From an uncultured bacterium (GTDB taxonomy: Bacteria; Patescibacteriota; Patescibacteriia; CAIQCM01), in contig OY970181.1 in the NCBI GenBank assembly GCA_963708045.1, positions 887,566 through 951,565 on the forward strand: a stretch of 64,000 nucleotides of DNA, given 5' to 3'. How positions within the stretch are numbered: the first letter of the stretch is position 1; each line of letters begins with the position of its first letter. The notes beneath the pieces are model-generated. The model was not told where the DNA came from. It saw nothing but the letters and a program-made list of their open reading frames with translations, and made no database searches. This document shows, in pieces, positions 22,076 to 52,088 of the stretch. Both the position numbers and the translations under genes were made by a program.

Positions 22076-22114
22076 AATTACTTTAAAAATATACCGAGTT
22101 CTTAAGGCAACTTA

Positions 22115-22432: not shown

Positions 22433-22434
22433 AT

Positions 22435-22507
22435 TAACTTTTAACTGTTAACTTTTAACTATTAGTATTCGTTTACCTAAAAGTTAAAAGTTAAAACCTG
22501 AAAGTTA
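22435..22507. repeat. imperfect palindrome built of AAGTTAA/TTAACTT heptamers
   Basis: Arms 22435-22466 and 22477-22507 are reverse-complementary with a 10-nt loop. A solo arm of the same family sits at 35567-35595. Confidence 0.5.
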
Positions 22508-22508
22508 T

Positions 22509-25481
22509 TTAAAATTCCCTAAATTCGCAGATATCCTTAAAGTCGCAATTCTTGCACTTATACTCGTTAGGGTCGGCGCCAAAATCGCTTTTGCGAATTT
22601 GTTCAATACTGGATTGGATATATGTTCGCATCTTATCCAAATCTTTGTCCGTTCCCAAAAATTCCACGCTTGAGCCGTTATCCAAAAAAACAAAAATCAG
22701 TGATGATGGTTTTTTGCCAAGCACTTCAAGCGCCGCGATTTGATAAACCAACAATTGTTCTTTTTCTTCAAAACCAATGTCGTCTTCGGCTTTTGCTTTG
22801 CCAGTTTTATAGTCAACAATGCGAATCGTGCCGTCCAAAAGCTCGTCAACGCGGTCAATCGCCCCTCTAAAAGTCGCGTCACCGAATTTAAGATTGAATT
22901 TTTTTTCCAACCAAAGCGGTTTGATCGTTTGATCTTTTACTGAATCATAATATAACAACAGCTGTTTTTTCCCTTTGCCACGATATTCTTCTTTACTATT
23001 CGCATTATCAAACCATTCGTCAATCCAGCTTGCTTCATAAAGCGCGTCTAATTCTTCGCGCTTAATTAGCTCGCCCACCGTTTTTGGTTTTACTGCGCCG
23101 GCATCAAATAGACTTGTTTGCGCAGAAGCTTGCCGCTCGGCCACCGTTTCAAACATTTTCTGAAGCGCCGCGTGCATGGTTTTTCCAAAAGAAAATTGCC
23201 CCTTTCCCTTAATCGGAATCCTTAAAATGTGCGCGAACTTAAACTGCAGCGGACAGTTTTCAAAAGCCTTAAGTTGCGTGAAGGAAAAGGAATCCGAAAT
23301 TAAGGTTTTGGGTTTTGGGTTACAGGTTACAGGAGAAGGCGCAGCATTTCCCTCCCTTAAGGTAAGGGAGGGCGGGGGTGGGTTATGTTCCTTATTTGAT
23401 TTTTCTTGCGCCGTCGCGCCATATCCCAACTCAACCAAAAAGCGCGATGGTTTGCGTTTGCGCGCGCCGCCGTAATCATCGGCCGAAGTTAAAAACAAAC
23501 CTTTTTTAGCGCGAGTCATTCCAACATAAAAAAGTCGTCGCTCTTCTTCCAGGTGGTGATCGCCTTCCGGCAAAATTTCCTTAATAAGCGCGGGTGGCAG
23601 TTCAATCGCTTCGGCACGCTCACCCGAAGGAAACCGACGGTCAATCAGTGAAACCAAAAATACATAATCAAACTCCAGACCCTTAGAAGCGTGCACCGTA
23701 AGAACGCGAACCGCTTCGGGGCCAACGTCCGGATCAAAAGCCAGTCGCCCATCTTCCCCTGCCTCAAGCTGCAATTTTATCCTTTCCAAAAACAATTTAG
23801 CCGTTGGTTCTATTTCGTTCGCGACAAATTCTTCAACCACCTTCCAAAATTGATTGATATAATTTAGTGTGTCGTGATTAAGTTGGTTGTCTTCGCCGAC
23901 TAAGCGTCGTAAATAGCCAGTGTCTTCCAAAAAAGCAAAAATAACAACACGAACGTCGCTCTTTTTTGCAAGCTCGGTATGTCGCTCTATAAAACTTAAA
24001 AATTTATTAATTTTTGCGAGACCATCGGCTGTTACACCGAGCGTTGCCGCCTTGCCACAAGCCTCATAAAGCGACCAGGTGCCCTTTGCCGCGGCGTGCG
24101 TAAGCTTAACCGTGTCATCATGCGAAAGCTCAACAACTGGACCCACGAGCATCCGGTAAAGCGACGGGCTTTCGTGATAATTATCCAAAAGTTTTAAATA
24201 GTTGATAATATCCAGCACCACCGTTTTTTGATAAAGACCGCGCGAGGCGTAAAAAATATACGGAATCCCCGCCGCGGCAAGCGCCGCAATAAACGGATTA
24301 GCGCCATCGTTTGACCGTGATAAAATCGCGAATTGTGAATAATTGGTTTTGGGGTCGCTTATCAAAGTATCTTGAATTTTTTTAACCACCAACCGTGCCT
24401 CGTCGGTTATTGTTTCACCGTGCAAATGTTCAACTTTGCCCAAATCGGCATTATTCGCGTGTAATTTTTTTGACAAGCCATCACCAAGTTGCGCTTCAAG
24501 ACGATTTGGATTGTTAGCCTGAATAAATTTATAGGCCGCGTCCAAAATCGTTTGCGGCGAACGATAGTTTTCGGTAAGGATAACTTGTTTTGTCGTCGGG
24601 TAAAACTGTTTAAACTGCAAGATATTAGAAACCGACGCGCCGCGGAATTTATAAACCGACTGGTCGTCGTCGCCGACAACGGTAATATTTGCTTTGTCAC
24701 CCGCAAGCAAACGCAATAATTCAAATTGCGCAATGTTCGTGTCTTGAAACTCGTCAACGATCAAATATTTAAATTGCGAACGATATTTTTCTAAAATTGC
24801 GGGGCGAGTTTTAAAAAGACGAACAACCTCATTAATCAGATCGCCAAAGTCCATTGCTTCGTTTTCGCGCAGGAGTTGCGTATACACATGATAAGCCTCG
24901 GCCACTTCGTTAAGGCGCGTCGTCTCGTCAGTATCAGCTGGTCTGTCTTTATCTAGTTGTACGCTTTGCGCATACGCCAAATATTCAGCCGGCTGAATGA
25001 CTTCGTCTTTGGCGCGGCTAAAATGTTTTAAAAGCGCGTGAATAAACTTAGTCGGATTCCCTAACGGCTTGTAGTAATCTAATTTAAAACGATCAAGATT
25101 ATTTCTAATGAGCAACCATTGATCAGTTTCCGACAATAATTTGAAAGAATTAGGTAAGCCAATTGCAAGGCCGTGGTCACGCAAAATTCTTTCACCAAAC
25201 GCATGAAAAGTCATTACCCAAAGATCCACATAACCGTAAGGAAGCAGTTTATCTATGCGCTCTTCCATTTCACCTGCCGCTTTGTCGGTAAAAGTGACGG
25301 CCAAAATTTCATCGGTTTTAGCTTTGCCGGTTTCCACAAGATACGCCAGGCGTTTCGTTAGCACCGACGTCTTTCCCGTGCCTGCGCCAGCCACAATTAA
25401 AAGCGGACCATTATCGTGGATAATAGCCTCTTTTTGCGCCTCATTCGCACCTGCAAGTAATTTCTCGCTGGCTTCCGACAT
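22509..25481 (-). CDS. UvrD/PcrA-like superfamily-1 helicase fused to a C-terminal PD-(D/E)XK (Cas4/AddB-like) nuclease with Cys cluster
   Basis: AGAGTGKT Walker A, VDEFQDTN, helicase motifs. C-terminal IVDYKTGK...CKNCDFKDICEF. Probable start MSEASEKLL (the upstream extension overlaps the neighbouring gene). In-frame repeat/hairpin insertion at 23290-23400. Confidence 0.75.
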   Translation of the reverse strand: MSEASEKLLAGANEAQKEAIIHDNGPLLIVAGAGTGKTSVLTKRLAYLVETGKAKTDEILAVTFTDKAAGEMEERIDKLLPYGYVDLWVMTFHAFGERILRDHGLAIGLPNSFKLLSETDQWLLIRNNLDRFKLDYYKPLGNPTKFIHALLKHFSRAKDEVIQPAEYLAYAQSVQLDKDRPADTDETTRLNEVAEAYHVYTQLLRENEAMDFGDLINEVVRLFKTRPAILEKYRSQFKYLIVDEFQDTNIAQFELLRLLAGDKANITVVGDDDQSVYKFRGASVSNILQFKQFYPTTKQVILTENYRSPQTILDAAYKFIQANNPNRLEAQLGDGLSKKLHANNADLGKVEHLHGETITDEARLVVKKIQDTLISDPKTNYSQFAILSRSNDGANPFIAALAAAGIPYIFYASRGLYQKTVVLDIINYLKLLDNYHESPSLYRMLVGPVVELSHDDTVKLTHAAAKGTWSLYEACGKAATLGVTADGLAKINKFLSFIERHTELAKKSDVRVVIFAFLEDTGYLRRLVGEDNQLNHDTLNYINQFWKVVEEFVANEIEPTAKLFLERIKLQLEAGEDGRLAFDPDVGPEAVRVLTVHASKGLEFDYVFLVSLIDRRFPSGERAEAIELPPALIKEILPEGDHHLEEERRLFYVGMTRAKKGLFLTSADDYGGARKRKPSRFLVELGYGATAQEKSNKEHNPPPPSLTLREGNAAPSPVTCNPKPKTLISDSFSFTQLKAFENCPLQFKFAHILRIPIKGKGQFSFGKTMHAALQKMFETVAERQASAQTSLFDAGAVKPKTVGELIKREELDALYEASWIDEWFDNANSKEEYRGKGKKQLLLYYDSVKDQTIKPLWLEKKFNLKFGDATFRGAIDRVDELLDGTIRIVDYKTGKAKAEDDIGFEEKEQLLVYQIAALEVLGKKPSSLIFVFLDNGSSVEFLGTDKDLDKMRTYIQSSIEQIRKSDFGADPNEYKCKNCDFKDICEFREF

Positions 25482-25564
25482 AGAAGCCAGTTTACCACAC
25501 GAAACATTCAACAAAAACACCCCCGACTTTAATAGAAAGTGGGGGTGTTTTTGTTGTACTATTT

Positions 25565-26356
25565 TTAGAGTTGCGTGACGAGTTCGTTGGAATAAACACC
25601 GCAAGCGCCGCCCAAGTATTCGCAAACGCGAATATGATACGAACCTGATCCGCTAAACGCCTCAAGGTTGGTCGTGCGTGCCGCTGGATCGCTCAGGTAG
25701 ATATATTGATCGCCGTCGCGGGTTGGATAAGTTGGTGTCGCATTCTTTGACCAAACAATTTTAAAACCGTTCTTTGAATAACCATTAAGTGTCCAGCTGA
25801 CCGTCGCGCCCGTTACCGTTGCTGAGATAGAACTTACGGCATTGGATGTTTCATTCTTTGCTTCTGGTTTTTTTACTTCAGGTTTTTTTTCTTCAGCTTT
25901 TGGTGTTATTTTTAGCTTTGCAAGTGTTGTACAAAACAGCGCGTGCGCCTTAGCTTTGGTTGCGGCGTCAAAAACGCCGGTTTCCGGCAAGCCGTTATTT
26001 TTTTGAAAACTAAAGAGGGCGGCGCGAGTTACTTTTCCAAAGTAACCAGTGCTCTTAAGTTTAAAGAAACCTTTTTCGCGTAAAAAATCCTGCAACCGTC
26101 GGACGCTGGTGGTCTCTTCTGCTTCGCCGTCGCCAAGCGAAAGCTCGGCATCGGCGACATAACACGCTGTTCCTTTTTTAAGATCGTCCAATCGTTTTTG
26201 CAATTTTGTAATTAGCGTTTGTAACTGTTCTATGCCGTAATTGGCAAAAACGTCCTCGCCTACCGTCGTCACTGCTCCAGCCGGAACAGGCGGAAATGCT
26301 CCCGCAATGATCAAAAAAGCCAAGACAACGCCGATAAACCGGTATTTTTTAGTCAT
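25565..26356 (-). CDS. secreted protein with peptidoglycan-binding (PGBD-like) domain
   Basis: Signal peptide. VRRLQDFLREKGFF...GYFGKVTRAALFSFQKNNGLPETGVFD matches the PG_binding_1 pattern. Confidence 0.55.
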   Translation of the reverse strand: MTKKYRFIGVVLAFLIIAGAFPPVPAGAVTTVGEDVFANYGIEQLQTLITKLQKRLDDLKKGTACYVADAELSLGDGEAEETTSVRRLQDFLREKGFFKLKSTGYFGKVTRAALFSFQKNNGLPETGVFDAATKAKAHALFCTTLAKLKITPKAEEKKPEVKKPEAKNETSNAVSSISATVTGATVSWTLNGYSKNGFKIVWSKNATPTYPTRDGDQYIYLSDPAARTTNLEAFSGSGSYHIRVCEYLGGACGVYSNELVTQL

Positions 26357-26387
26357 AAATTAAATATTTAAGAGTTATCTTAAATTA

Positions 26388-26398
26388 ATTATAGCACA
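26388..26398 (-). promoter_or_regulatory. extended -10 box TGTGCTATAAT
   Basis: Minus-strand TGnTATAAT about 30 nt upstream of the 25565..26356 start codon. The same TTTGTGCTATAAT box recurs at 44155 and 58553. Confidence 0.4.
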
Positions 26399-26433
26399 AA
26401 TACTCGTTCTTTGCCGCGCGAAAAATCTATATC

Positions 26434-28788
26434 TTAAACCTCTATCTTTTGATACAACTTCTTTTGAAAAGAAAAAAATAACGAACGAATATGTTCAACA
26501 TTGCCAAGCACCTGTTCGGCATTGGCGATGGCATTATATTTTAAATTTAAAAGAATTGGCAATTGTTCTTCGCCCAGCTCATCCACGCCTTTTTCCGCGT
26601 ACTTGGATAAAGCAAAATTTACAAATTCTTTTTGTTTTTCGTTTAACCCCTCGTAAATTATGTCTTTCGTTTGCTCTATCCGCTCAGCCCTGGTAACCGG
26701 ACGGGTTAGAAACGATAAGTAAGCTAAAACGTCAAAAAGATCGCTTTGTTCGGCGTCAACCAACTGTTGAAAAGTTTGGAGTACGTCGGCACTATAACCT
26801 AATTCAGCAAGCTTTCCCAAAAAAACTTTTCGCGTCGTTGGATTAGACCAAATTTTTCTAAGCTCGTCTTCATTTTTGAAAAATTCCGGCAAAACGCCAA
26901 ACATATTTTCCAAAAATTCCTGAACCGAAAGCGGTTTGCCGTCGGCACCCCAAAACGAGGTAGAGATCATATGCTTAATCTCGCGCTCTTTGCCGTCACG
27001 GAGTTTAATCTTCAATTTCACCTTTGGTGAATTATCACAAATACATGGAGCTTGACCGCAAACAGAACAGGTTCGCGGCGGTCGTTCACATTCACAAGGT
27101 TTTTTGCCGCACATTTTACATTTTTCTGGTGTCGGCGGCTTGCCGGTTGATACATCAATCGGTTCGCCGTCCCATTCGGGGTCGGAAAAATGTTTATAAG
27201 CGTCAACAAAGTCGTAAATTGTAAAATATTCTTTGCCGTCAAAAAGCCGCGTGCCGCGCCCAATAATCTGCTTAAATTCAATCATTGAATTTATCGGACG
27301 CATTAAAATAATATTGCGGATATTCCGCGCGTCAACGCCCGTAGAAAGTTTTTGCGAGGTCGTTAAAATCGTAGGAATAGTTTTTTCGTTATCTTGAAAC
27401 TCGCGCAAAAATTGTTCACCACGCCCGCCGTCGTTGGCAGTTACGCGCACGCAGTAATTTGGATCTTTGTTATCTTTCATTTGGTTGACTAAGTCGCGAA
27501 CTGCAGCAGCATGAGCCTGATTAGCGCAAAAAATAATTGTTTTCTCGTTTTGGTTAATTTCATCTAAAATTACACGAACCCGTTTTGCTTCACGTTCTTT
27601 AATAATAATAATTTTATTAAAATCATCCTCTTCATAACGTTTTCCTTCTTCAACCTCACCCTCAATAATTTGGTCATCTGAAGTATAAATATAATCGTCT
27701 AAGGTTGTTTGAACACGTTTAACCTTAAACGGTGTTAAAAAACCGTCGTTTACGCCTTCTTTAAGAGAATAAATATATACAGGATCGCCAAAATATTTAT
27801 AAGTATCGGCATTGCCTTTTCTTTTTGGCGTTGCCGTTAAGCCAAGTTGTACCGCCGGTTTAAAATACTCCAAAATATCGCGCCAAGTACTTTCGTCGTT
27901 GGCACCGCCACGATGACACTCGTCAATAATTATTAAGTCAAAAAAATCAGGAGGGTATTCGCCAAAATACGGACTATTGCCGGAGCCGCTCATAAAAGTC
28001 TGGAAGATTGTAAAATATACGCTCCCACTCATTGGCACGCCGCCTTTTTTCCGAATATCCATCGGATCAATCCGAACCAAAGCGCCGTCGCCAAAAGCCG
28101 AGAAAGCATTAAACGCTTGATCGGCTAAAATATTGCGGTCAGCCAAAAATAAAATTCGCGGTTGCCGCACCCTGTCGCGTTTTAAATTCCAGCGCGTTTG
28201 AAACAACTTCCAGGCAATTTGAAAAGCAATAAAAGTTTTACCCGTGCCCGTCGCGAGCGTCAAAAGCACGCGATTTTTTTCTTCAGCAATCGCGTTCATT
28301 ACATTATTAACCGCGATCTCTTGGTAGTAACGCGGTTTCTTGCTTGTTCCGCCGTCTTCAAACGGTACGGCATCAAATTTTTCTTTCCATTCATTCTGAT
28401 CGGAAAAAGTTTTGTTCCACAGCGCGTCCGGCGTCGGAAAAGCTACAATCTCGCCCTCGCGACCCGTTTTCATTGAAATTTCGTAAATCCCCTTTCCGTT
28501 TGTTGAATATGTATAATCAAGATGCAGTTTGGCCGCATACGCCTTGGCTTGACCCACTCCGGCGCCGACCTCTTCAGTATCAGCCTTGGCTTCTACCACG
28601 CCAAGCTTGCAATTTTTGTAAACCAAAATATAGTCGGCGATTTCCGCTTTGCTTCGCGTGCCGCCCACTTGAATCCGCCCTTCGGTAATATGAAACTCGC
28701 GAAGGATTTTTGACCCTTCCACCACGCCCCACCCACTTTCTTTAAGTTTGGGATCAATATATTCCGCTCGTGTGTCGGCTTCGTTCAT
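26434..28788 (-). CDS. hsdR: Type I restriction enzyme R subunit (compact HsdR)
   Basis: N-terminal EADTRAEYIDP...GW and VVEAK (PD-(D/E)XK). SF2 helicase TLATGTGKT / IIIDECHRG / TTSQKLSTGVD / QIIGRGTR. C-terminal Cys-rich insertion CKMCGKKPCECERPPRTCSVCGQAPCIC. Confidence 0.75.
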   Translation of the reverse strand: MNEADTRAEYIDPKLKESGWGVVEGSKILREFHITEGRIQVGGTRSKAEIADYILVYKNCKLGVVEAKADTEEVGAGVGQAKAYAAKLHLDYTYSTNGKGIYEISMKTGREGEIVAFPTPDALWNKTFSDQNEWKEKFDAVPFEDGGTSKKPRYYQEIAVNNVMNAIAEEKNRVLLTLATGTGKTFIAFQIAWKLFQTRWNLKRDRVRQPRILFLADRNILADQAFNAFSAFGDGALVRIDPMDIRKKGGVPMSGSVYFTIFQTFMSGSGNSPYFGEYPPDFFDLIIIDECHRGGANDESTWRDILEYFKPAVQLGLTATPKRKGNADTYKYFGDPVYIYSLKEGVNDGFLTPFKVKRVQTTLDDYIYTSDDQIIEGEVEEGKRYEEDDFNKIIIIKEREAKRVRVILDEINQNEKTIIFCANQAHAAAVRDLVNQMKDNKDPNYCVRVTANDGGRGEQFLREFQDNEKTIPTILTTSQKLSTGVDARNIRNIILMRPINSMIEFKQIIGRGTRLFDGKEYFTIYDFVDAYKHFSDPEWDGEPIDVSTGKPPTPEKCKMCGKKPCECERPPRTCSVCGQAPCICDNSPKVKLKIKLRDGKEREIKHMISTSFWGADGKPLSVQEFLENMFGVLPEFFKNEDELRKIWSNPTTRKVFLGKLAELGYSADVLQTFQQLVDAEQSDLFDVLAYLSFLTRPVTRAERIEQTKDIIYEGLNEKQKEFVNFALSKYAEKGVDELGEEQLPILLNLKYNAIANAEQVLGNVEHIRSLFFSFQKKLYQKIEV

Positions 28789-28953
28789 AAAGTATTTAAT
28801 TTTGCCTTAAATTAGACGTTTTGTCAACCCTTCAGTAGGGTTATCAACTTCTCTTGTAAAGAACGTTAAAACCTGCTATATTCTATACATAAGAAGTAAT
28901 TCCTCTCGCGTTGGGATACCGCATGGCGTCCCGTTAAAGCGAGGGGTTTTCTT

Positions 28954-29583
28954 TTATGAAAACAGTAACCGCTCGTCAATAATTTTGTCTTTTATAATTT
29001 CATAAAATTCATAATCTCCTCTTTCGTACTTGCGAAATATAGCCCAGGAAATAAAATCAACCGCTTGTAAACCTTTCTCGTCGTGCGAAGCCGCAAGCGA
29101 CATTTCAAATTTACAATCGCGCCTTTTCTTCATCGCTTCGGTTATGTAAGCGATAAAATTATCGCGTAAATTCTTTTTTGTATCCTTTCTGTCAACCACG
29201 AGAAATAGTTGGTTATCGCCGTCAACGCGTTTTGAATTTATCAAACGGTCAAGAATTACGTTTGCCGTGTAGTTATAGAGATAGTTTTTCTGATTTTGCA
29301 AATCAACATAGACCTTTTCTTTATTTAAAATTGTAGTTACTACGGCGATATCTAGCTGTGAAAGCGATTTAAGCACCCTCGTGCGCGTAACATCGTCGCA
29401 ATGATACGCATGAAGTTCTGAAAACTTATGCTTGTGTTTCTTTTTCAAACCATTTTTAACTTTTTTAATTACGCGCTCAAGCAGGCGCGGATCATTCACA
29501 ACAACCAAAGTAAACAAAAACCACTTACTAGATTTCTTAGAAAATCCTAGATCACCGCTTTCATCAAGAAATATATAAGCCAT
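28954..29583 (-). CDS. DUF3800-family protein
   Basis: Starts MAYIFLDESGDLG (DUF3800 N-terminal DESG signature) with a later Q..AVDFISWAI motif. Probable start at the Met preceded by AGGAA. 29 nt downstream of hsdS. Confidence 0.5.
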   Translation of the reverse strand: MAYIFLDESGDLGFSKKSSKWFLFTLVVVNDPRLLERVIKKVKNGLKKKHKHKFSELHAYHCDDVTRTRVLKSLSQLDIAVVTTILNKEKVYVDLQNQKNYLYNYTANVILDRLINSKRVDGDNQLFLVVDRKDTKKNLRDNFIAYITEAMKKRRDCKFEMSLAASHDEKGLQAVDFISWAIFRKYERGDYEFYEIIKDKIIDERLLFS

Positions 29584-29642
29584 ATTCACAATATTCCTGT
29601 CCGGATTAGACATTAGATATTAGGAATTAGATATTCATCGTA

Positions 29643-30851
29643 TTACAGCTCCCCGCTAAACGCCTTTTTGAGAACCGATTTCTTTAATTCTTCCAAATCC
29701 AACAATTTTTGTTTATATAACCCCTCCAGCTTTTTCGTCTGTTCCGATAAGGCGTCAAGCTTTGCAACAATCTTTTTTTGTTGGTGGAGGGATCTTGGAA
29801 ATTGAATAAACACCTCGCGTATCTCTTCCAAGTGAAGATTAGGAACCCCTACCCCTTTTAATCTTTTGTTAAACTGTTTTTTAGCCATAGGTGAATTAAT
29901 AAAATACAACAAAAAATTTGGCAGGATCGCATCTTTAGCACGAATTAACGCCAAACTTACATATATATCAAAAACTAAGTTCCTATCCACCATTGCAGCC
30001 ACTCCAGTCGTACCATTTTTAGCCAACAGGATATCACCCAAGCGAGGCGAAACCCGTTTATGCATTTTCGAGATGTTGTTTTTGGTCAATATATTTAATC
30101 TTTTCCCAATTAATTTTTCCGCTCGTAACATTTCTGAGGATAAAAAAATTATTCCACTATCATAATATGTTGGCGTTTGGTGTGTTCCGTCCGTTATTTT
30201 TTCGGAGATATCGCCCAACCGTTTCTCCTCCCACCCCTCCCCCGGATTAGAAAAGATGCTTTGCAGATACGACTCAAAAAGCTCTTTTGCATTCTGCAAA
30301 TTTTTTTCCGTATTCTTTTTAACCTTCACAATCCCCTCAAACACCTCATCCAAAATTTTTACGATCCGTTGTTGTTCGGGGAGGGGTAAAATTGGAATTT
30401 CAAAATCCTTTAAATCAGTAAATTTTAAATTATTTATATTAGCCCCACTGGAAATTTTTTCCAAATGATCTTTATAAAACGATGAGCTTAAAATATAAAA
30501 AAAATATTTTGAATCAATGCATTCTTTGGGTGTTAATTGACCCATAAATCCACCAAAGGCATATTTGTAATCACCATCAATTAGTGCAATTTTTCCAAGA
30601 TGACTTTTACTACCATTTGCAGTGCATACAATTATCGATCCTCTTCGCACCATTTTATTATCTGGAATCATTATTGTATTGCTTATATATCTCAGGTCGC
30701 TTAAATCTAACAGGCCACTATTTAGATCAATATTATTTGAGCGTAAAACAATATTATCTGAAAAATCTACCTCGTCTTTTTTAGAATAAGTTAGCCCTCT
30801 CGAAAAATCACAAACTTCGCCGAGTTTTTTTGTTTGTAAATTTATTTCCAT
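29643..30851 (-). CDS. hsdS: Type I restriction-modification specificity subunit
   Basis: Two target-recognition domains, each followed by a conserved PLPEQQRIVKILDE / coiled-coil-like motif. 402 aa. Confidence 0.8.
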   Translation of the reverse strand: MEINLQTKKLGEVCDFSRGLTYSKKDEVDFSDNIVLRSNNIDLNSGLLDLSDLRYISNTIMIPDNKMVRRGSIIVCTANGSKSHLGKIALIDGDYKYAFGGFMGQLTPKECIDSKYFFYILSSSFYKDHLEKISSGANINNLKFTDLKDFEIPILPLPEQQRIVKILDEVFEGIVKVKKNTEKNLQNAKELFESYLQSIFSNPGEGWEEKRLGDISEKITDGTHQTPTYYDSGIIFLSSEMLRAEKLIGKRLNILTKNNISKMHKRVSPRLGDILLAKNGTTGVAAMVDRNLVFDIYVSLALIRAKDAILPNFLLYFINSPMAKKQFNKRLKGVGVPNLHLEEIREVFIQFPRSLHQQKKIVAKLDALSEQTKKLEGLYKQKLLDLEELKKSVLKKAFSGEL

Positions 30852-30854
30852 AAT

Positions 30855-31646
30855 TTATTTTAGAAAACCGACCCATTCACTATTCAGATCAAAATAATTA
30901 TATCCATTCTGTGAATCTGATTCTAAGTGGCCAATCCATTCATTATTAATATCAAAAATCATGTAGCCATTTTGTGAATGCTTAATTGCAAACTTTGTTT
31001 GTTCTGCGCTAAAGTCGAAAAACAACAACGAATTTTGTGAATTTTCAAAAATCACAAATTCGTAGGGGGTGCAGTTAAGGTCATAATTATAATAACCAAT
31101 AAAATTTGCGTTAAATCTAGGATTAATTAAATTATTAAATCTTGGATTAATAAGGTTGTTAAATCTAGGATTAATTAAATTATTAAATCTTGGATTAATA
31201 AGGTTGTTAAATCTAGGATTAATTAAATTATTAAATCTTGGATTAATAAGGTTGTTAAATCTAGGATTAATTAAATTATTAAATCTTGGATTAATAAGGT
31301 TGTTAAATCTAGGATTAATTAAATTATTAAATCTTGGATTAATAAGGTTGTTAAATCTAGGGTTTCTATTATTGCTCACTGGCGCTACATCTAAAGTTAA
31401 ATCCAGGAATACGAGAACAGGAATATTGCGACTATCGTTCGTAAAATTTATAAAAATTCTGAGTATGCCAACTTTAAAAAATTGTATTTGTCCAAATACA
31501 AAATTCAATCCTAAATAATTTGCTACACCATTAGCATCTAAAACCTTTATTTTATTAAGAACATCAACAATTATTCCTTTAGGTGTTTTATCAAGTTGAT
31601 TTAACTTATTTTCAAATTTTTCTGTTGCCAATATTTTAATATTCAT
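30855..31646 (-). CDS. repeat protein: RelE/ParE-like N-terminal fold (tentative) + ~13x NPRFNNLI octapeptide repeats + three C-terminal NGYxxFDxNxEWxG (WG-like) repeats
   Basis: Stop codon lies 3 nt from the hsdS start. N-terminal ~90 aa resemble RelE (…KFENKLNQLDKTPKGIIVDVLNKI…KVGILRIFINF…VLVFL). Encoded by perfect 48-bp DNA tandem repeats. Confidence 0.45.
   Translation of the reverse strand: MNIKILATEKFENKLNQLDKTPKGIIVDVLNKIKVLDANGVANYLGLNFVFGQIQFFKVGILRIFINFTNDSRNIPVLVFLDLTLDVAPVSNNRNPRFNNLINPRFNNLINPRFNNLINPRFNNLINPRFNNLINPRFNNLINPRFNNLINPRFNNLINPRFNNLINPRFNNLINPRFNANFIGYYNYDLNCTPYEFVIFENSQNSLLFFDFSAEQTKFAIKHSQNGYMIFDINNEWIGHLESDSQNGYNYFDLNSEWVGFLK
31110..31357. repeat. perfect tandem 48-bp (2 x 24-bp) DNA repeats, ~5 copies, in-frame within a CDS
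   Basis: GTTAAATCTAGGATTAATTAAATTATTAAATCTTGGATTAATAAGGTT repeated head-to-tail at 31110, 31158, 31206, 31254 and 31302. Confidence 0.85.
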
Positions 31647-32017
31647 AAATGTAGGTCAGACATTATGTCTCTCAATGCGTCGTTTCCTTTCCTAATTGAC
31701 TCATTTACCTTTTGAGCCAGTTCTGGAAGACATTGGCTCCTCATATACGCTGTACAATAATCATTGTCCTTAAACTTCTCAATAGATTCATCTATTTGGA
31801 TTTGAAATCTAAAGTAGAAATATATAAAAATACTGGCCAGAATAAGAAAATAAAAAGACTTGGTTTTGTAAAAAGACCCCCAATTCAAAGAATTGTTTAT
31901 GGTTATTTCTGTTACGAAAGCACCGGAAAGTATGCTGAAAATAAAAATACTAAAAATATTTATTATTGTTTTAAAAAGCGGGGATTTTTGTATCTTATCT
32001 TTTAAACAAAGGTGCAT
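31643..32017 (-). CDS. small 2-TM membrane protein, translationally coupled to hsdM
   Basis: Probable start MHLCLKDK. Its ATG lies 1 nt after the hsdM stop. Two hydrophobic helices then a soluble C-terminus. Overlaps the start of the repeat protein (ATGA-type). Confidence 0.4.
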   Translation of the reverse strand: MHLCLKDKIQKSPLFKTIINIFSIFIFSILSGAFVTEITINNSLNWGSFYKTKSFYFLILASIFIYFYFRFQIQIDESIEKFKDNDYCTAYMRSQCLPELAQKVNESIRKGNDALRDIMSDLHL

Positions 32018-32018
32018 A

Positions 32019-33473
32019 TTATAGCCTCGCCATAATACTTTCAATAATTTTTTTTGAATCAACATCTAAAATGACCATATTTTTTAAAACCTCTTTCGGA
32101 TCACGCAAAGCGGCTTCGTCAGCTTTATTCGGATTCTTCACTGATAAATCAAAAGTCGCTTGATCAATGTCCTTAACATTCACACTCCAACTATTGGCGC
32201 TATTGGCTTTGGTTTTTTGTTGGGTGATGAAGTCGGCGAGGTCGGGTTCGTTTAGGGGGTTTCCTTTGCCGAGGTTGCGGTTTAGGTTCAATTGGTAGAA
32301 CCAAACTTTTTTAGTTGGGGCGCCTTTTTCAAAGAAAAGAATTACGGTTTTAACGCCGGCGCCCTGAAAGGTGCCACCGGGGAGGTCTAAAACAGTGTGG
32401 AGGTTGCAGGATTCTAAAAGTAATTTACGCAGGCTGACCGAGGCGTTGTCGATGTTGGAGAGAAAGGTGTTTTTTATGACGATACCGGCGCGGCCGCCGG
32501 CTTTTAACATTTTTATAAAGTGTTGGAGAAATAAAAAAGCGGTTTCGCCGGTTTTAATGGGAAAGTTTTGCTGAAGCTCGGGGCGTTCCTTGCCGCCAAA
32601 GGGCGGGTTAGCTAAAACAATATTGTAGCGATCCTTTTCCATTATATCGGCAAGATTTTCGTTAAGCGTGTTTGTTTTTCTAATATTTGGCGCTTCCACG
32701 CCGTGCAAGATCATATTCATAATGCCAATAATGTATGGCAATGAGATTTTTTCCTTTCCGTATAAAGTTTTCTTTTGAATCGTCGCCCAGTCTTTGGTAG
32801 AAATTTTTTCTCTGTTTTGCGTTAGGTATTGAAACGCTTCAACCAAAAATCCGGCACTGCCGCAGGCGCCGTCGTAAATCGTTTCGCCGACCTTTGGATC
32901 AACAACCTTAACAATCGTTTTAATAAGCGGGCGCGGGGTGTAGTACTGGCCGCCATCTTGGCCGGCGTTGCCCATCCCTTTTATTTTGCTTTCGTATAGG
33001 TGCGACCACTCGTGCTTTTCGGCTTCGGTTTTAAAATGCAAACCATCAATAATGTCCAAAATATTTCGTAGCGCGTAGCCGCTTTGGATTTTATTTTTTA
33101 GTTCGCTAAAAATTTCGCCAATTTTATATTCAACCGTGTCCGAGCTTTCGGAAGCGGCTTTAAACTTTTTTAAGTACGGAAAAAGTTTGTCATTTACAAA
33201 ATCGCGCAAATCATCGCCGGTAAGCGTTTTGTTGTGATCCAATTTTCCGCCAACGGCCTTGGGGCACGCCCAAGCGCTCCAACGGTATTGCGGTTCAAGA
33301 ATGTAATTAAACTTTTTACCCGCCAGTGCCGCTTCGGTCTTTTTTGTTTCCTCCAAGTCATCAAGATACTTTAAAAACAAAATCCAAGAAGTTTGCTCAA
33401 TATAATCAAGCGCTCCGCCAGCATTGTCCGCGCGCAAGATATTATCAATATTTTTTAACGCTTGTTCAAACAT
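32019..33473 (-). CDS. hsdM: Type I restriction-modification DNA methyltransferase subunit (N6-adenine)
   Basis: HsdM N-terminal domain. VLANPPFGG (motif IV NPPF). AdoMet motif DGACGSAGFL. Confidence 0.85.
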   Translation of the reverse strand: MFEQALKNIDNILRADNAGGALDYIEQTSWILFLKYLDDLEETKKTEAALAGKKFNYILEPQYRWSAWACPKAVGGKLDHNKTLTGDDLRDFVNDKLFPYLKKFKAASESSDTVEYKIGEIFSELKNKIQSGYALRNILDIIDGLHFKTEAEKHEWSHLYESKIKGMGNAGQDGGQYYTPRPLIKTIVKVVDPKVGETIYDGACGSAGFLVEAFQYLTQNREKISTKDWATIQKKTLYGKEKISLPYIIGIMNMILHGVEAPNIRKTNTLNENLADIMEKDRYNIVLANPPFGGKERPELQQNFPIKTGETAFLFLQHFIKMLKAGGRAGIVIKNTFLSNIDNASVSLRKLLLESCNLHTVLDLPGGTFQGAGVKTVILFFEKGAPTKKVWFYQLNLNRNLGKGNPLNEPDLADFITQQKTKANSANSWSVNVKDIDQATFDLSVKNPNKADEAALRDPKEVLKNMVILDVDSKKIIESIMARL

Positions 33474-33579
33474 ATTTTTACGCCAAAATCATCTAATTAA
33501 TTATAAAAATATACCGTTTTTTGGCGGAAAAAGCAAGTAAGGAACACAACGCCAAAAACCCTCTCCCGGCCTTCGGCCA

Positions 33580-33603
33580 CCCTCCCCCATTTTTGGGGGA
33601 GGG
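33580..33603. other. GC-rich hairpin CCCTCCCCC-N6-GGGGGAGGG next to a GGCC-ttc-GGCC hairpin in the divergent intergenic region
   Basis: Perfect 9-bp stem. Similar CCCTC...GAGGG hairpins at 35538-35561 and inside the CDS at 23341-23363. Confidence 0.4.
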
Positions 33604-33671
33604 AAAATACCGCGCCCCGAGCTTGCAAAAGTAATTAAAAAATGAGAGAACTTAAACTAGGAGGGACACCA

Positions 33672-34118
33672 ATGGAAACAAGTTCTTTTGAACACGAAAT
33701 ACTGTTGCAATATCTACCCAAACCGATCAGAACCACGATCCTTTTTATCACCCATGACAACACCGACGCCACTCTGGACAAAGAGGCAGAAGCGGCGATC
33801 ACGAACAGTGTATCCATGAGTCACGTTGTCCGTTTGCCCCTAGCAGAAGTTCTTAGGTACATAAGCATGGGAATCTACGACGTCGTCGTCCTTTGGACTG
33901 ATCAGGAAAGTGACGATGAAATTTCGGCGCTTGCGAACAGGCTGAAAAAAGCCAGCCACCCCGAGAACGACGATAGTGAACACTACAAAGTAAAGATCGT
34001 CGTTTTCTCCGCGCGGCAAAACTCTGGTTCTCTGCCTTGCGTCAACGCAAGGGTTGAGCAGCCCAACGTGAACGACCTCGCCATGATTGTCAGTTTGGTC
34101 AACTTACGACACGACTAA
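33672..34118 (+). CDS. hypothetical protein, possibly degenerate CheY-like receiver (REC) fold; GC-rich orphan
   Basis: Start METSSFE preceded by AGGAGGG RBS. Alternating beta/alpha pattern: TILFITHDNTD ... YDVVVLWTDQ ... KIVVFSA. Codon usage differs from neighbours. Confidence 0.3.
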   Translation: METSSFEHEILLQYLPKPIRTTILFITHDNTDATLDKEAEAAITNSVSMSHVVRLPLAEVLRYISMGIYDVVVLWTDQESDDEISALANRLKKASHPENDDSEHYKVKIVVFSARQNSGSLPCVNARVEQPNVNDLAMIVSLVNLRHD

Positions 34119-34190
34119 CTGTCACACATTCAACCTCTAACCCAACTCCACACCACCTCGCTCGCCCAAAAAGCCTGCGAGGTGATTTAT

Positions 34191-35501
34191 TTAAACCAAT
34201 CCTCGTTTTTCGGTGAGCATTTTGGAAAAACCTAGAACACGAGGATCCATAATTAAATCCGAGCGGCGGACGGGACGTTTAAGCGTAATACCATCAAGCG
34301 TTCGGCAGCGCGACAAAGCGACGTAGGATTGGCCGGCGGCAAAAGCGCCGCGACCAAGGTCAATTACAACCTTGTCAAAAGTTTTACCTTGGCTTTTGTG
34401 AATCGTTGTTGCCCAAGCCAAGCGTAAAGGAAACTGCGTAAAACTTCCGAGCGTTTCTCTTGTAATTTCGCCAGACTCGCGATCAAATTTTGTCTTTGCC
34501 TTATTCCACGTGTACGGCAAAATTTCAAAGGTTCGGCCGGTATCCAAAGTTACGTCAATGGACTCGTCTCGCACTTCTCTTACCGTCCCGAGCGTGCCGT
34601 TTACCCAACGGCCTTGATTGTCGTTATTCATTAGCATTACCCGCGCCCCGTTCTTTAGTCGTAGTTCCATTTCGGTCGGCAAATCGCGTTCTTTAAATTC
34701 GCCAACCAGCTTACCTTTGGCAACAGCGACCTTACCACTAAGACGCGCTAGATTATTTTCGTTGTGCGTATCGGCCTGAGTATTAATCGTCATTAAGTGC
34801 ATATGCTCGCCCTTGGGGTCGGAAAAATCTGGATCAAAACGCAAATTTAATTCCGCGAGTTCGGCTTCGGATATTTTCCCATCGCGAACCGCGTTTAAAA
34901 TTTTAATAAAACCTTCGTCGGTCTGCCGATATATTTTATTTAATTCAATATATTCCAAAGCGCCAAATTGCATACATTCACGAATCGCGCCCGAAGAGAA
35001 AAAGAACGGCGTGGCATACATTTTTTCCAATTCTTCAGTTTCCTCGCCGCGCACGATCGGCGGGAGCTGATGCAAGTCGCCAATCATAATAAGTTTTTTG
35101 CCGCCAAACGGCGTTTTATTTTTAAGCGCCGCGCGCAAAAATGTATCAATACAATCCATAAGGTCGGCGCGAACCATAGAAACCTCGTCAATGATTATCG
35201 TTTGCAATTTTTGAAACAGTTTATCTTTGCGCGACAAAGTACCGTCATGCTTGGCTTCTTCAAGCGAGGCGCCGGGGCGCAATTTAAAAAATGAATGAAT
35301 CGTTTGTCCATCAATGTTTACGGCGGCGACCCCGGTTGGTGCAACCACTGCCACCGCCCGTCGTGTCCGCTCCCTAAAGTAACGCAAAAGCGTGGACTTG
35401 CCCGTCCCCGCTTTTCCGGTAATAAACACGTTCTTTTCACCCTTTTCCATCACCTCGTACGCATTTCTAAATTGTTCGTTAAAATCTATCTTGTCCAGCA
35501 T
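34191..35501 (-). CDS. Pif1/RecD-like SF1B helicase
   Basis: GKAGTGKST Walker A, VVAPTGVAAVNIDGQTIHS, IIIDEVSMV, GDLHQLPPIV. These are classic Pif1 family motifs. Confidence 0.7.
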   Translation of the reverse strand: MLDKIDFNEQFRNAYEVMEKGEKNVFITGKAGTGKSTLLRYFRERTRRAVAVVAPTGVAAVNIDGQTIHSFFKLRPGASLEEAKHDGTLSRKDKLFQKLQTIIIDEVSMVRADLMDCIDTFLRAALKNKTPFGGKKLIMIGDLHQLPPIVRGEETEELEKMYATPFFFSSGAIRECMQFGALEYIELNKIYRQTDEGFIKILNAVRDGKISEAELAELNLRFDPDFSDPKGEHMHLMTINTQADTHNENNLARLSGKVAVAKGKLVGEFKERDLPTEMELRLKNGARVMLMNNDNQGRWVNGTLGTVREVRDESIDVTLDTGRTFEILPYTWNKAKTKFDRESGEITRETLGSFTQFPLRLAWATTIHKSQGKTFDKVVIDLGRGAFAAGQSYVALSRCRTLDGITLKRPVRRSDLIMDPRVLGFSKMLTEKRGLV

Positions 35502-35527
35502 AAGTTAATTAAAGCACACAAACACCC

Positions 35528-35570
35528 CTCACCCCAACCCCTCTCCCATTCTTGGGCGAGGGTGATAAAA
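35528..35570 (-). terminator. putative intrinsic terminator after ygjP-like gene (GC hairpin + U-rich tract on minus strand)
   Basis: Minus-sense CACCCTCGCCC-aagaat-GGGAGAGGG followed by GTGTTTGTGTGCTTT. Confidence 0.3.
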
Positions 35571-35573
35571 AAG

Positions 35574-36137
35574 TTAAAAGTTAAAAGTTAAAAGCTCTTT
35601 CCTAAGTTTTTTATGCTCCGGAATCGTCTTCGCGACCAAATCCCAAAATCTTTTTGAGTGATTAAATTCTGCCAAATGACAAAGCTCGTGAACAATAATA
35701 TAATCGGCAAGGTGCGGCGCGAGAAGTGACAGCTTATAATTAAAATTTAGATTCCCCTTTTTTGAACAACTTCCCCAACGCGTTTTTTGATTTTTAATAT
35801 TCACCGCTTTAAAACGAAAACCATAAAATAAATTAAAATGCCTAATCCGATCATTAACAAGGGCGCGTGTGATTTCTTTATATTTTAAATATTCGCTCCG
35901 CGTTCCCTTTTTTACAATTTGTATTTTATGCTCTTTAAAAAAGGCAATTTTGCGGGTGAGCCATACAGCTTTTTCGCGGATAAATTTTTCGGCCAGTGTT
36001 TCATTAGCCCACCACGGCGTTGTCACAACAATTCTACCATCGCAATATACCGCAAGCCGCATCCGCTTGGCTCGTCGGCTTTTCTTTATGGTATAAGGAA
36101 GCGTCGTAGATTTATTTTTTAACGTAAAAAAATTAAT
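35574..36137 (-). CDS. YgjP/DUF45-family metal-dependent hydrolase (M48/WLM-like, HExxH)
   Basis: ...LPYTIKKSRRAKRMRLAVYCDGRIVVTTP...WGSCS...YIIVHELCHLAEFNHSKRFW. Start uncertain: the family-conserved N-terminus overlaps the atpC stop. The only in-frame candidate is ATT at 36135-36137. Confidence 0.55.
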   Translation of the reverse strand: MNFFTLKNKSTTLPYTIKKSRRAKRMRLAVYCDGRIVVTTPWWANETLAEKFIREKAVWLTRKIAFFKEHKIQIVKKGTRSEYLKYKEITRALVNDRIRHFNLFYGFRFKAVNIKNQKTRWGSCSKKGNLNFNYKLSLLAPHLADYIIVHELCHLAEFNHSKRFWDLVAKTIPEHKKLRKELLTFNF

Positions 36138-36576
36138 TTGATTCCGGCGTACCGCTACGCGCGCGATGATGACGATGAGCAACTTTAAGTCGCGCCATTT
36201 CCCGTTCCAAGGCGATAGCAGCATCGGCATAAGCAACAGCATCGTGATCTTTTGCCGCTTCGGCCGTGGCCTCGGCCCGCGCTTTGGCATTTTCAATTTC
36301 CGAAATAACTAAATCCTCGGCGCGGTCGGCCGAGTCGGCTAAAATAATCGCGCGGCTGCCTGGCAAAATTTGTACCGCGCCGCCGGAAACGGCAAAATAT
36401 TTTGTCGCGCCGTTTGCACGGACAACAAGCGCACCCGAAGATACTAAACCAACCAAACCAATATGGTTTGGTAAAACGGTTATTTCACCATCAAACGTCG
36501 GCACGGTTACGCTATCCACTTCTTCCTTAAGTACCGTCTTTTCAGGAGTTGTTATTTCTAAATTCAACTTTGCCAT
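36133..36576 (-). CDS. atpC: ATP synthase F1 epsilon subunit
   Basis: MAKLNLEITTPEKTV... beta-sandwich N-domain plus helical C-domain. Last gene of the atp operon. Confidence 0.8.
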   Translation of the reverse strand: MAKLNLEITTPEKTVLKEEVDSVTVPTFDGEITVLPNHIGLVGLVSSGALVVRANGATKYFAVSGGAVQILPGSRAIILADSADRAEDLVISEIENAKARAEATAEAAKDHDAVAYADAAIALEREMARLKVAHRHHRARSGTPESN

Positions 36577-36653
36577 TTGTAGGGTTTAGGGGTTAGGGGT
36601 TAGCGTTGAGTGTTTTACTAAACGCTATACGCTTGACCCTAAACGCTTTAATA

Positions 36654-38057
<1,404 letters not shown>

Positions 38058-38093
38058 TTATTATATTTACAATTTGCAATTTACTATTTGCCA

Positions 38094-38951
38094 CTAACCC
38101 TCAAGTGCGGCGCGGCCGGCGGAAATTTCCGCGATCTCGGCCGTAATCGCCGACTGACGCGCTTGGTTAAGAGTAAAAGTTAGATCGTCAACCATTTCCG
38201 CGGCGGCATCGGTCGCGCTGCGCATACTCATCATCCGCGCGGAGTGTTCCGAAGCAGCAGCTTCAAGAATTGCCTGGTACAGACGAGCTTCCAAAAAACG
38301 CGGTAAAAGTTCGTTAAGAATTATGCTCGGATCAGGTTCAAAGGCCGCATTCGCCACGTCTTTTTCAATCTGCTCCCCGAGCGCAATTGGCAAAAAACGA
38401 GTAACGCCCGCTGTCTGTTTTAAGGCCGAAATAAAACGCGTTCCCGCAACCCAGACACTACCATAGACCCCAGAAATAAATTCGCTTTGCGAAAGCGACG
38501 CGATCGGACGAATTGACTTAGCACGCGGCGCGTTCGTGAGTCCAGGAAAACTGGCAATAATATTTTTTCCAGCGCGACGCAAAGCCATTTCGGCGTGCCG
38601 GCCGCAAACAATGTAATCAACGTCGGCGTAGGCAGCCATATCCACGAGCACCGACCTAAGAAGTGAAACATTGTACGCACCGCAAAGCCCGCGGTCAGAA
38701 CCAATGACAATGCAAAGCGCTTTCTTTCCCTTAACCTCGGGCACGCAGAGCGTATTTTGGTGCGATGCCCCAAGGTACGACAAATGGCCGAGTAAGCCGT
38801 TCCCAAGCTCTTCGTACCGGCGCGCGGCGGTCGCAAGCATTACCGCACGACGCATTTTGGCTGCGGAGACAAGCTCCATAGCCTTAGTAATTTTTTTGGT
38901 ATTGCCAACCGACTTAATGCGGCTGCGAATTAATCGCGCGGGGACGGCCAT
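38094..38951 (-). CDS. atpG: ATP synthase F1 gamma subunit
   Basis: 285 aa. N- and C-terminal coiled-coil helices. ...ITAEIAEI C-terminus. Confidence 0.85.
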   Translation of the reverse strand: MAVPARLIRSRIKSVGNTKKITKAMELVSAAKMRRAVMLATAARRYEELGNGLLGHLSYLGASHQNTLCVPEVKGKKALCIVIGSDRGLCGAYNVSLLRSVLVDMAAYADVDYIVCGRHAEMALRRAGKNIIASFPGLTNAPRAKSIRPIASLSQSEFISGVYGSVWVAGTRFISALKQTAGVTRFLPIALGEQIEKDVANAAFEPDPSIILNELLPRFLEARLYQAILEAAASEHSARMMSMRSATDAAAEMVDDLTFTLNQARQSAITAEIAEISAGRAALEG

Positions 38952-38968
38952 TGTTTAGGGTTTAGGAC

Positions 38969-40468
38969 TTAATTTGAAAAGGGAAATTCCTTTATCGCTT
39001 TCTTAATCGCTTCTTCTATGTCGGGCGATAGTTCTTTCTTTTCATTTAGAGCTGTAACAACCTCGGTCGCGGAGGTTTCCAAATATTCAAGAAAACTTTT
39101 TTCCCACGCTGTAATCTTTTCCGCCGGAATGGCGTCAAGATAACCATTTACCGCGGCATAAAGAATAATTACTTGTTCCGATACCGCGAGCGGACGATAT
39201 TGACCCTGCTTTAAAATTTCCACAATGCGGCGTCCGCGTTCAATTTGTTTGCGCGTCCCCTCTTCAAGATCAGTCGCAAATTGCGCAAAAGCTTCAAGCT
39301 CGCGGAATTGGGCGAGATCAAGACGCAAACGTCCCGCGACTTTTTTCATCGCTTTAATCTGCGCCGCGCCGCCGACGCGAGAAACCGAAAGTCCGACGTT
39401 AAGTGCTGGCCGAATACCGCGGTAAAACAAATCCGACTCTAAGAAAATTTGACCGTCGGTAATGGAGATAACGTTAGTCGGAATGTACGCGGAAATATCG
39501 CCGGCCTGCGTTTCAATAATTGGAAGCGCCGTAAGTGAGCCGCCGCCTTCTTTTTTGCTCATCCGCGCCGCGCGTTCCAAAAGACGGGAGTGCAAATAGA
39601 AAACGTCGCCCGGGTAGGCTTCGCGTCCCGGTGGACGACGAAGAATGAGGGAAATTTGCCGATACGCCCAAGCGTGTTTGGAAAGATCATCGTAAACCGC
39701 GAGCGCGTCGCGCCCCTTGTCCATAAAATATTCGCCCATCGCCGCGCCAGCGTAAGGCGCAATAAACTGAAGCGCCGCCGCCGAACTGGCCGGAGCAGAA
39801 ACAATGATCGTGTGTTCCATTGCGCCAACTTCGGTGAGTTTGGCAACGATGCGTGCGACTTTGGATTCCTTTTGTCCGATCGCGACGTAAACGCAAATTA
39901 CGTTTTTTCCTTTTTGGTTGATAATCGTGTCCACGGCAACAGCGGTTTTTCCCGTTTGCCGATCGCCAATGATAAGTTCGCGCTGACCGCGGCCGATCGG
40001 AATCATCGCGTCCACGGCTTTAATGCCGGTTTGGAGCGGCGTATTTACCATTTCGCGCGCGAGCACGCCCGGCGCGATTTTTTCTACTGGATATTGCGCC
40101 GACGCTTTTATTTCACCCTTGCCGTCAAGCGGTCGGCCAAGCGGGTCAACGACGCGGCCAATGAGTGCCTCGCCAACGGGAACGGAAAGAATTTTTCCAG
40201 TGCGCTTAACAATATCGCCTTCTTTAATTCCCATCGCATCGCCCAAAATCATCGCGCCGACAGTTTCTTCTTCAAGGTTTAACGCGACGCCAAAAACATT
40301 GCCCGGAAACTCAAGCATTTCCGAAGCCAAGCAATCGGCAAGTCCGGTCATTCGGGCAACGCCGTCGCCGACCTCAATAACCTTGCCAACTTTTTCGGCA
40401 CGGGCATCGGCGGAAAACGAAGCAATTCCCTCTTTCAATTCTTTGATCAATGATTTTGCGTCGGGCAT
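38969..40468 (-). CDS. atpA: ATP synthase F1 alpha subunit
   Basis: GDRQTGKT P-loop. 499 aa. Confidence 0.9.
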
Positions 40469-51983: not shown

Positions 51984-52088
51984 ATCTTTGTTTATGAATC
52001 ATGAAACACGCAACATGAAACATTTTAACCCCCGCAAAACGGGAGCGGATATGCTTCGTGTTTCATGCTTCATGCTTCATGCTTCATG
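51984..52088. repeat. imperfect palindrome built of CATGAAA/CATGAAG heptamers with GC hairpin core
   Basis: TGAATCATGAAACACGCAACATGAAAC ... GTGTTTCATGCTTCATGCTTCATGCTTCATG flanking CCCCCGCaaaacGGGAGCGG. Confidence 0.5.

Follow-up and report, generated by a model that had tools for sequence, protein, structure and literature searches.

Positions 887,566 to 951,565 of contig OY970181.1 (GenBank assembly GCA_963708045.1), from an uncultured bacterium of the Patescibacteriota, were analysed as one stretch of 64,000 nucleotides (hereafter the window). Tandem Repeats Finder reports a single outstanding tandem array in the window, and the raw sequence agrees. It is a perfect 48-bp repeat inside the gene for a 263-amino acid (aa) protein (P0001; 30855..31646, minus strand), which lies in a type I restriction-modification (R-M) operon. 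The repeats are likely to encode a structural domain, made of octapeptides, that is under constraint and evolves in concert; they are not an on/off contingency switch. Their identity at the DNA level results from a recent amplification or conversion of a double unit within the array. Across the protein family, arrays have a strong preference for 11 units, and homogenisation has recurred many times independently without freeing the number of units.

The perfect repeat (31110..31361, minus strand) consists of 5.2 copies with 100% matches and no indels (score 504), and a 24-bp period with 79% match is nested in it. Five perfect 48-mers are far beyond chance. Read in codons on the minus strand, the layout is (A B)x5 + A', where the alternating units A (AAT CCT AGA TTT AAC AAC CTT ATT) and B (AAT CCA AGA TTT AAT AAT TTA ATT) are synonymous and both encode NPRFNNLI. 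The last unit, A', has the same first 15 bases as A and encodes NPRFNANF. The first unit opens with AAC, not AAT. According to the translation and the parsing of units, the complete array has 11 units (31101..31364, minus strand; aa 95-182), and the product reads ...SNNR-(NPRFNNLI)x10-NPRFNANF-IGYYNYDL.... A preliminary description of this DNA had claimed five identical head-to-tail 48-bp units with degenerate flanks within a coding sequence, each encoding two octapeptides, so that a change of copy number keeps the reading frame. Tandem Repeats Finder, the raw sequence and the codon read-out (A plus B) bear this out, as the 24- or 48-bp unit lies wholly inside the 263-aa minus-strand coding sequence. 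The coordinates given there, 31110-31357, do locate the array but end four bases short of its true end at 31361. On the plus strand, a 120-aa open reading frame (ORF) at 31156..31518 (LNLGLIKLLNLGLIRL..., LNLGLI...) was rejected as a gene, being an antisense by-product of the periodic sequence.

The closest comparison is with the ortholog P0002, found in the metagenome-assembled genome (MAG) DBS2-4.bin128 (locus L001). P0002 is 75% identical to P0001 overall and 65% identical outside the array. Its cassette, hsdM - 126-aa transmembrane (TM) protein - P0002 - hsdS - 229-aa protein - hsdR, has the same order as in the window, and the genes flanking the cassette are unrelated. The P0002 array is built from a 24-bp unit C (AAT CCA AGG TTT AAC AAC CTA ATA; 10.6 copies, 98% identity) and also encodes NPRFNNLI, as 10 + 1 units, with other codons. 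Units A, B and C vary at seven sites, and every one of these differences is synonymous (7/7), while 14/72 (about 19%) of single-base changes are expected to be so. Arithmetic from 14/72 puts the chance of 7/7 at the order of 1e-5. Since the unit variants differ only synonymously, purifying selection acts on the peptide, indicating a constrained structural peptide. Variants inside the arrays of L001 and of another locus, L014, sit in adjacent blocks, a signature of local duplication.

A word-indexed search found 27 homologs, none of them with a Pfam domain and all with octapeptide arrays of the form NPxxNxx[IL/F]. When 1.84 billion cluster representatives were searched exhaustively with a profile, 1012 proteins were retrieved at E<=1e-3, including 205 at E<=1e-30, with a usual length of 254-273 aa. 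The consensus of 1634 units is N(87%)-P(88%)-[R/K/N]-[F/Y/I]-N(92%)-x-x-[I 55%/L 26%], and the family alignment has no conserved stretch of 7-10 columns. One profile match, P0090, a 3048-aa protein with Ig domains, was rejected as a spurious low-complexity match. P0001 itself has no significant match in Pfam, NCBIfam, PADLOC or PHROGs, and a literature search for the peptide motif returned irrelevant results only. The degenerate repeat pattern is absent from the viral contigs scanned. A tblastn search of phages and plasmids with P0001 found nothing, but a more typical member, P0014, found a plasmid homolog (see below). The roughly 1000 clusters at 50% identity thus form an unannotated family.

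The number of units was counted in 157 representatives with a complete C-terminal domain. Exactly 11 units are found in 94 of the 157 (60%), in 65/103 of those with the N-terminal domain described below, and in 24/32 of those that lack it. When arrays with at least four identical units are called homogenised, 65% of the 48 homogenised and 58% of the 109 degenerate arrays have 11 units, which is not a significant difference (Fisher p=0.48). The 48 homogenised arrays have 45 different dominant units (e.g., NPKYNTSI, NPTFNRAI, NPHYNKTL, and NPQFNAQI), and homogenisation must therefore have occurred many times over. At the DNA level, array purity is 100% in the window, 98% in L001, 95% in L014, and 89% in L004. 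In L002 the repeat is undetectable in the DNA, yet the protein has 11 units. Since proteins without the N-terminal domain (N-less proteins) keep 11 units as well, the constraint sits in the module formed by the array and the C-terminal domain, not in the spacing between the two terminal domains. From this we infer that the array has a defined size as a structural element, either capped or closed. Note that the second most frequent count in the family is 9 units. The family neatly illustrates the concerted evolution of arrays whose length is constrained: dozens of lineages have been homogenised independently, to different units, and most keep 11 of them.

Structural models are consistent with such an element. 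P0001 would be a three-part protein, with an N-terminal domain of predicted RelE/ParE fold (approximately aa 1-88; 31383..31646, minus strand), the 11 octapeptide units, and a C-terminal beta domain (30858..31100, minus strand) with conserved F-D...W-G motifs. In the AlphaFold2 (AF2) model of P0001, made from an alignment of 26 sequences, the mean predicted local distance difference test (pLDDT) score is 94.3 and the predicted template modelling (pTM) score is 0.79. The array is modelled at a pLDDT of 95-97 with no regular secondary structure, and the C-terminal ~80 residues form eight strands as four hairpins. P0019, a natural N-less protein with a degenerate array, gives a model with a pLDDT of 94.7 and a pTM of 0.88, in which the only regular element of the array is a 3-10 turn of three residues, present at positions 6-8 in some units. 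In both models pLDDT exceeds 90 across the array. A Foldseek search with the P0019 model found no similar solved structure (best E 0.085, to the beta domain), and the structural neighbours of the C-terminal domain are weak matches only. A sequence profile search of the PDB returned only period-8 or low-complexity coincidences (e.g., the designed protein HeliScrew4). Two candidate assignments were rejected. The C-terminal domain does not pass the 4-fold beta flower model (PF21784), for which only P0002 gives a match (E=0.36; 11.7 bits, below the cut-off of 25), and the four-hairpin topology predicted by AF2 is a resemblance only. The array is not a pentapeptide or hexapeptide solenoid, as its period is 8 and it has no Pfam match, no beta-ladder in either model (DSSP) and no structural match.

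The N-terminal domain has the alpha-beta arrangement of the RelE/ParE fold. For the Pfam model ParE_toxin (PF05016), P0001 gives no match, and the homologs stay below the cut-off of 23 bits (22.7 bits for the best, P0008; 14.6 for P0005). Across 103 N-terminal domains the conserved residues are D82 (95%), K14 (90%), F11 (78%), and R63 (64%).

The repeat gene does not stand alone. The preliminary description had placed it in an R-M operon, and the Pfam and PADLOC matches agree and specify a type I system, with hsdM, hsdS and hsdR flanking it on the same strand. Immediately upstream lies a gene for a protein with two TM segments (the 2-TM partner; P0171, 124 aa in the NCBI annotation; 31643..32017, minus strand), whose stop codon overlaps the start codon of the repeat gene (ATGA). 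The 2-TM partner is found upstream and translationally coupled in eight of the nine loci examined whose member has the N-terminal domain (the window, L001, L011-13, L015, L002/3, L004/5, L014, and L017). Its invariant residues include E-I-T, W, FYK, and a cytoplasmic motif F.D..YC.AY....CLPE. The ninth locus, L016, has only a 55-aa remnant of the partner. The member there (P0012; homogenised, NPQFNAQI x9) has no 2-TM partner; the 55-aa ORF (L016 1773..1940) overlaps the start of P0012 by 4 bp and ends in ...ELKKSLK, like the C-terminus of the partner, and is probably a decayed partner gene.

The two genes lie between hsdM and hsdS in the window (P0001), in L001 (P0002) and in L011 (P0003; likewise L011-L013). 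In four other loci the pair has defence or toxin-antitoxin genes in its vicinity, being found beside a C-5 methylase (L015, P0006), near a Gp49/HTH pair (L014, P0005), among NYN, NucS-like and PhdYeFM genes (L017, P0007), and in an island with AAA_15/21, DUF4357, HSDR_N and HsdM genes (L002, P0015). An N-less form in L006 comes after a trypsin-like gene. Genes for Trypsin_2-like proteases occur near members in two loci (L006 6283..7017, overlapping the start of the N-less gene, and L004 4800..6350, divergent and upstream of the pair), and such a protease may be an alternative partner. Another N-less homolog with 11 units (175 aa; WP_172692823.1, annotated as hypothetical protein; L018 5980..6507) is carried by the Enterobacter hormaechei IncC plasmid p24845-Ct2 (NZ_MF344572.1), between a retron (reverse transcriptase plus PtuA) and an AbiV gene. 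A fragment of IS3 lies just upstream of it, and the IncC plasmid is conjugative. With this homolog, experiments in a tractable host become feasible. Judging by fold, gene order and neighbourhoods, the most likely role of the two-gene module is that of an R-M accessory with a toxin-antitoxin-like or defence-associated function. What makes the family of interest is a confidently predicted period-8 domain that has no match among solved structures. It is joined to a RelE-type fold, has a conserved membrane protein as partner, and recurs in R-M operons and defence islands.

The following mechanism would account for the array as a constrained domain. Selection would act on both the octapeptide sequence and the length of the array. 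Slippage would continually remodel the array, and selection would restore or retain 11 units. The array would form a fixed-size, capped or closed solenoid-like element that, together with the C-terminal domain, makes a binding or sensor module, with the RelE-fold domain serving either as an effector or as a docking domain for the membrane partner. The repeat gene is translationally coupled and probably co-transcribed with that of the upstream 2-TM partner, and in the lineage of the window the gene pair is inserted between hsdM and hsdS. The event seen in the window may represent the re-expansion of a shorter array, of 3 units (A-B-A') as in the closest relatives.

Several observations weigh against this explanation or against parts of it. 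The structure of the repeat domain is an AF2 prediction and has no match among the solved structures searched. The number of units is less uniform near the window than in the family as a whole. In the 20 closest representatives (C-terminal domain at least 40% identical) it ranges from 3 to 12, being 11 in only 8 of the 20 and 3 in three of them. This variation implies that a change of length is tolerated, and it may itself have a function. The difference between 3 and 11 units fits either direction, from 3 to 11 or from 11 to 3. The core of array and beta domain also occurs in apparently exported or surface proteins (signal peptides in P0026 and P0027, fusions to CARDB domains in P0160 and P0168, and a DUF4124 domain in P0164). 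The core thus occurs independently of the RelE-fold domain, as a general module, and is not exclusively intracellular; the window protein itself has no signal peptide. As for the two-gene module, the pair in L004 (P0017) has no defence neighbours, and no PADLOC, PHROG, phage or close plasmid match links the module to a known defence system. In place of a DNA-binding antitoxin, the protein has a membrane protein as its partner, which speaks against a classical RelE RNase. With good conservation only at K14, R63 and D82, RNase activity of the N-terminal domain is doubtful.

One alternative is about what the gene does, and it can hold alongside the explanation of the repeat given above. The RelE-fold protein might be a guardian of the R-M system like PrrC in EcoprrI, restrained by the type I complex or by its membrane partner until a phage inhibits restriction and thereby sets it free, with the repeat and the beta part as the sensing surface. 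Like the anticodon nucleases PrrC and RloC, the genes of the pair are accessory genes among hsd genes, and they are kept there across diverged loci. However, they have no similarity in sequence or domains to PrrC or RloC (no match to an ABC-type ATPase with an anticodon nuclease domain in Pfam, NCBIfam or PADLOC), the pair is also found away from R-M genes, and the canonical RelE catalytic set is not evidently conserved. By analogy and on this evidence, a guardian role is conceivable but rather unlikely.

The preliminary description had suggested a possible contingency locus, created by very recent slippage or recombination. The recent event stands. The units are perfectly identical, and the amplification or conversion is younger than the divergence of A and B, in whichever direction the number of units changed. 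Outside the array, P0001 is 65% identical to P0002 (11 units), 64% to P0004 (3 units), and 62% to P0003 (3 units), and the order of proline codons CCT/CCA/CCT is common to A/B/A' of the window and to the three units of P0003. The window array may have grown from an A-B-A' trio by four additional copies of the A-B pair (3 + 8 = 11); equally well, P0003 may be what is left of (AB)5A' after the loss of four pairs. In side observations, the 3-unit state (P0003, P0004, and P0006) occurs in at least two lineages of the nearest subfamily and is exactly 8 units below 11.

In a true hypermutable contingency locus, slippage would produce subpopulations with 9, 11, 13 or other numbers of octapeptides, tuning the module and possibly R-M or defence. 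In favour of such a locus, a run of five perfect 48-bp units is inherently unstable, local duplication is ongoing in L001 and L014, as the adjacent blocks of variants show, and the comparison with relatives that the preliminary description had proposed does reveal different numbers of units in the closest subfamily (3, 7, 9, and 11), with P0001 about equally related (62-65% outside the array) to 11-unit and 3-unit proteins. Against such a locus, 11 is the mode of the family, equally so in homogenised arrays, and the ortholog P0002 also has 11 units. That P0001 and P0002 are both at the mode suggests that the end point is set by selection and not by chance. Furthermore, the identical 3-unit P0003 is found in three independent samples, although these were looked up by exact protein and are biased in that respect. 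No near-identical strain was found in the collections searched: exact-match metagenome scans gave 0 matches for the unique 3' flank of the array and 0 for the A-B junction, P0001 is not on record in an exact-protein look-up and is the single member of its 90%-identity cluster, and a GTDB scan found only the 75% ortholog P0002. On balance, hypermutable tuning of this kind is quite unlikely.

Phase variation in the strict sense fares worse. In known R-M phase variation, slipped-strand mispairing eliminates or restores expression (PMC12707154). The array in the window is recent, in frame, labile in length, and part of an R-M operon, and to this extent the suggestion of the preliminary description holds. 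Its phase-variation part does not, given that the repeat lies in a gene that is not an R-M gene and has the canonical 11 units. All length changes being in frame, the 24- or 48-bp unit cannot switch the repeat gene or the downstream hsdS on and off. The tract is of high purity (5.2 copies, 100%), but it alters neither frame nor promoter spacing. Tandem Repeats Finder detects no other pure simple sequence repeat in the hsd genes, and among ORFs of at least 120 aa in 22000..40000 there is neither an extra hsdS copy nor a recombinase. A phasevarion was therefore rejected, as the repeat is outside hsdM, hsdS and hsdR, in a separate 263-aa gene, and no invertible hsdS cassette with a recombinase shows among those ORFs.

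A bolder possibility is an undescribed defence or toxin-antitoxin module with a novel type of period-8 solenoid of quantised length (11, with a recurrent 3), in which slippage acts as a length switch between functional states. We regard this as improbable. If it were true, the pair of a 2-TM protein and a RelE-fold/array/beta protein would ride inside type I R-M operons and defence islands. As a mere contingency locus, by comparison, the finding would be routine.

It is very improbable that the number of repeats is an artefact of an array collapsed or expanded in assembly: although 252 bp of perfect repeat exceed typical short-read k-mers and short-read assemblers do break here, as in an independent k-mer assembly of ERR12035931, the assembled count is the canonical 11, the 263 aa fall within the family mode of 254-273 aa, the ortholog P0002 of an unrelated MAG also has 11 units, and the ORF is intact with its flanking units (the first, AAC variant and the last, A') in register. 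The contig in question (Logan; 1118 bp) stops ~33 nt into the array and carries an identical 140-aa upstream ORF, which places the same or a near-identical strain in another public run.

The remaining genes of the operon are on the minus strand and tightly packed with the repeat gene and its partner. They are hsdM, encoding the type I methyltransferase (32019..33473; Pfam N6_Mtase 9.9e-63, PADLOC MTase_I 7.1e-156), hsdS, encoding the specificity subunit (29643..30851; Pfam Methylase_S 1.3e-34, also PADLOC), a DUF3800 gene between hsdS and hsdR (28954..29613; Pfam DUF3800 1.7e-16, phrog_9243), and hsdR, encoding the restriction subunit (26434..28788; Pfam ResIII and EcoEI_R_C, PADLOC REase_I 6.8e-143). 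The ATG of hsdS is 3 nt downstream of the stop codon of the repeat gene. A promoter and terminator scan found nothing above background, with no terminator-like site between hsdM and hsdS, and no tRNA or Rfam elements are found in the window. With the DUF3800 gene, the type I operon contains a second accessory gene; the corresponding place in the L001 cassette is taken by a 229-aa gene that has no annotation (L001 9927..10616). G+C content is 27% in 31-32 kb and 27-37% across the three kilobases 29-32 kb, against about 44% for the window. This low-G+C segment (29000..32000) covers the DUF3800 gene, hsdS, the repeat gene and the TM gene, and hsdM and hsdR are near the window average, which suggests a different history or a different constraint for the middle of the operon.

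Directly upstream of the operon is a gene for a PIF1/RecD-like helicase (34191..35501, minus strand; Pfam PIF1 2e-32), with weaker PADLOC matches to PDC-S68 and type IV RecD. Between the two lies a 158-aa ORF with no family match (33642..34118, plus strand). Tandem Repeats Finder also detects many short arrays of 7-bp period scattered over the window (3-5 copies, 79-100% identity; e.g., 52051..52088, 53044..53074, 35569..35594, 22434..22507, 4049..4071, and 5083..5105).

Several known systems resemble the window in part. In the type I enzymes EcoR124I and EcoR124II, a 4-aa (12-bp) repeat in HsdS reportedly sets the length of the spacer in the recognition site (Price et al. 1989, listed as reference 164 in PMC12707154). 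Here likewise an in-frame tandem repeat is located in a type I locus, and its copy number would serve as a molecular ruler, not a switch. However, that repeat is in HsdS itself and its two versus three copies alter DNA specificity, whereas the protein that carries the repeat of the window is distinct from HsdS and not homologous to it. Compared with the type II toxins of the RelE/ParE superfamily, the RelE-fold domain of the window protein is fused to about 170 further residues, its conserved polar residues are limited to K14, R63 and D82, and the window protein passes no Pfam threshold. Where those toxins have a DNA-binding antitoxin, it has a 2-TM membrane protein as partner.

Long coding repeats are also found in the alpha C protein of group B Streptococcus, an exported antigen whose identical in-frame repeats vary in number between and within strains. 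As in the window, these repeats are long, identical and in frame, and are maintained by recombination or slippage. In contrast, the count is constrained in the window array and the protein has no signal peptide. At the level of the protein, helical screws and other eight-residue solenoids share the period-8 logic of the array as predicted or solved regular superhelices. HeliScrew4 (PDB 9zem) has period-8 repeats with a polar cap residue, a proline and a buried hydrophobic position (bioRxiv 10.64898/2025.12.04.691947). It matches only by periodicity (E=1.1), but the models of the window family have neither alpha-helices nor beta-ladders and only one 3-10 turn per unit.

Phase-variable R-M systems (phasevarions) are similar to the window in having a very pure repeat tract in an R-M operon. 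They use short tracts that switch expression (PMC12707154) or inversions of hsdS, whereas the unit of the window is 24 or 48 bp, in frame, and in a gene that is not an R-M gene. Unlike the tracts of phasevarions, the array of the window has a number of units that is the preferred value of its whole family.

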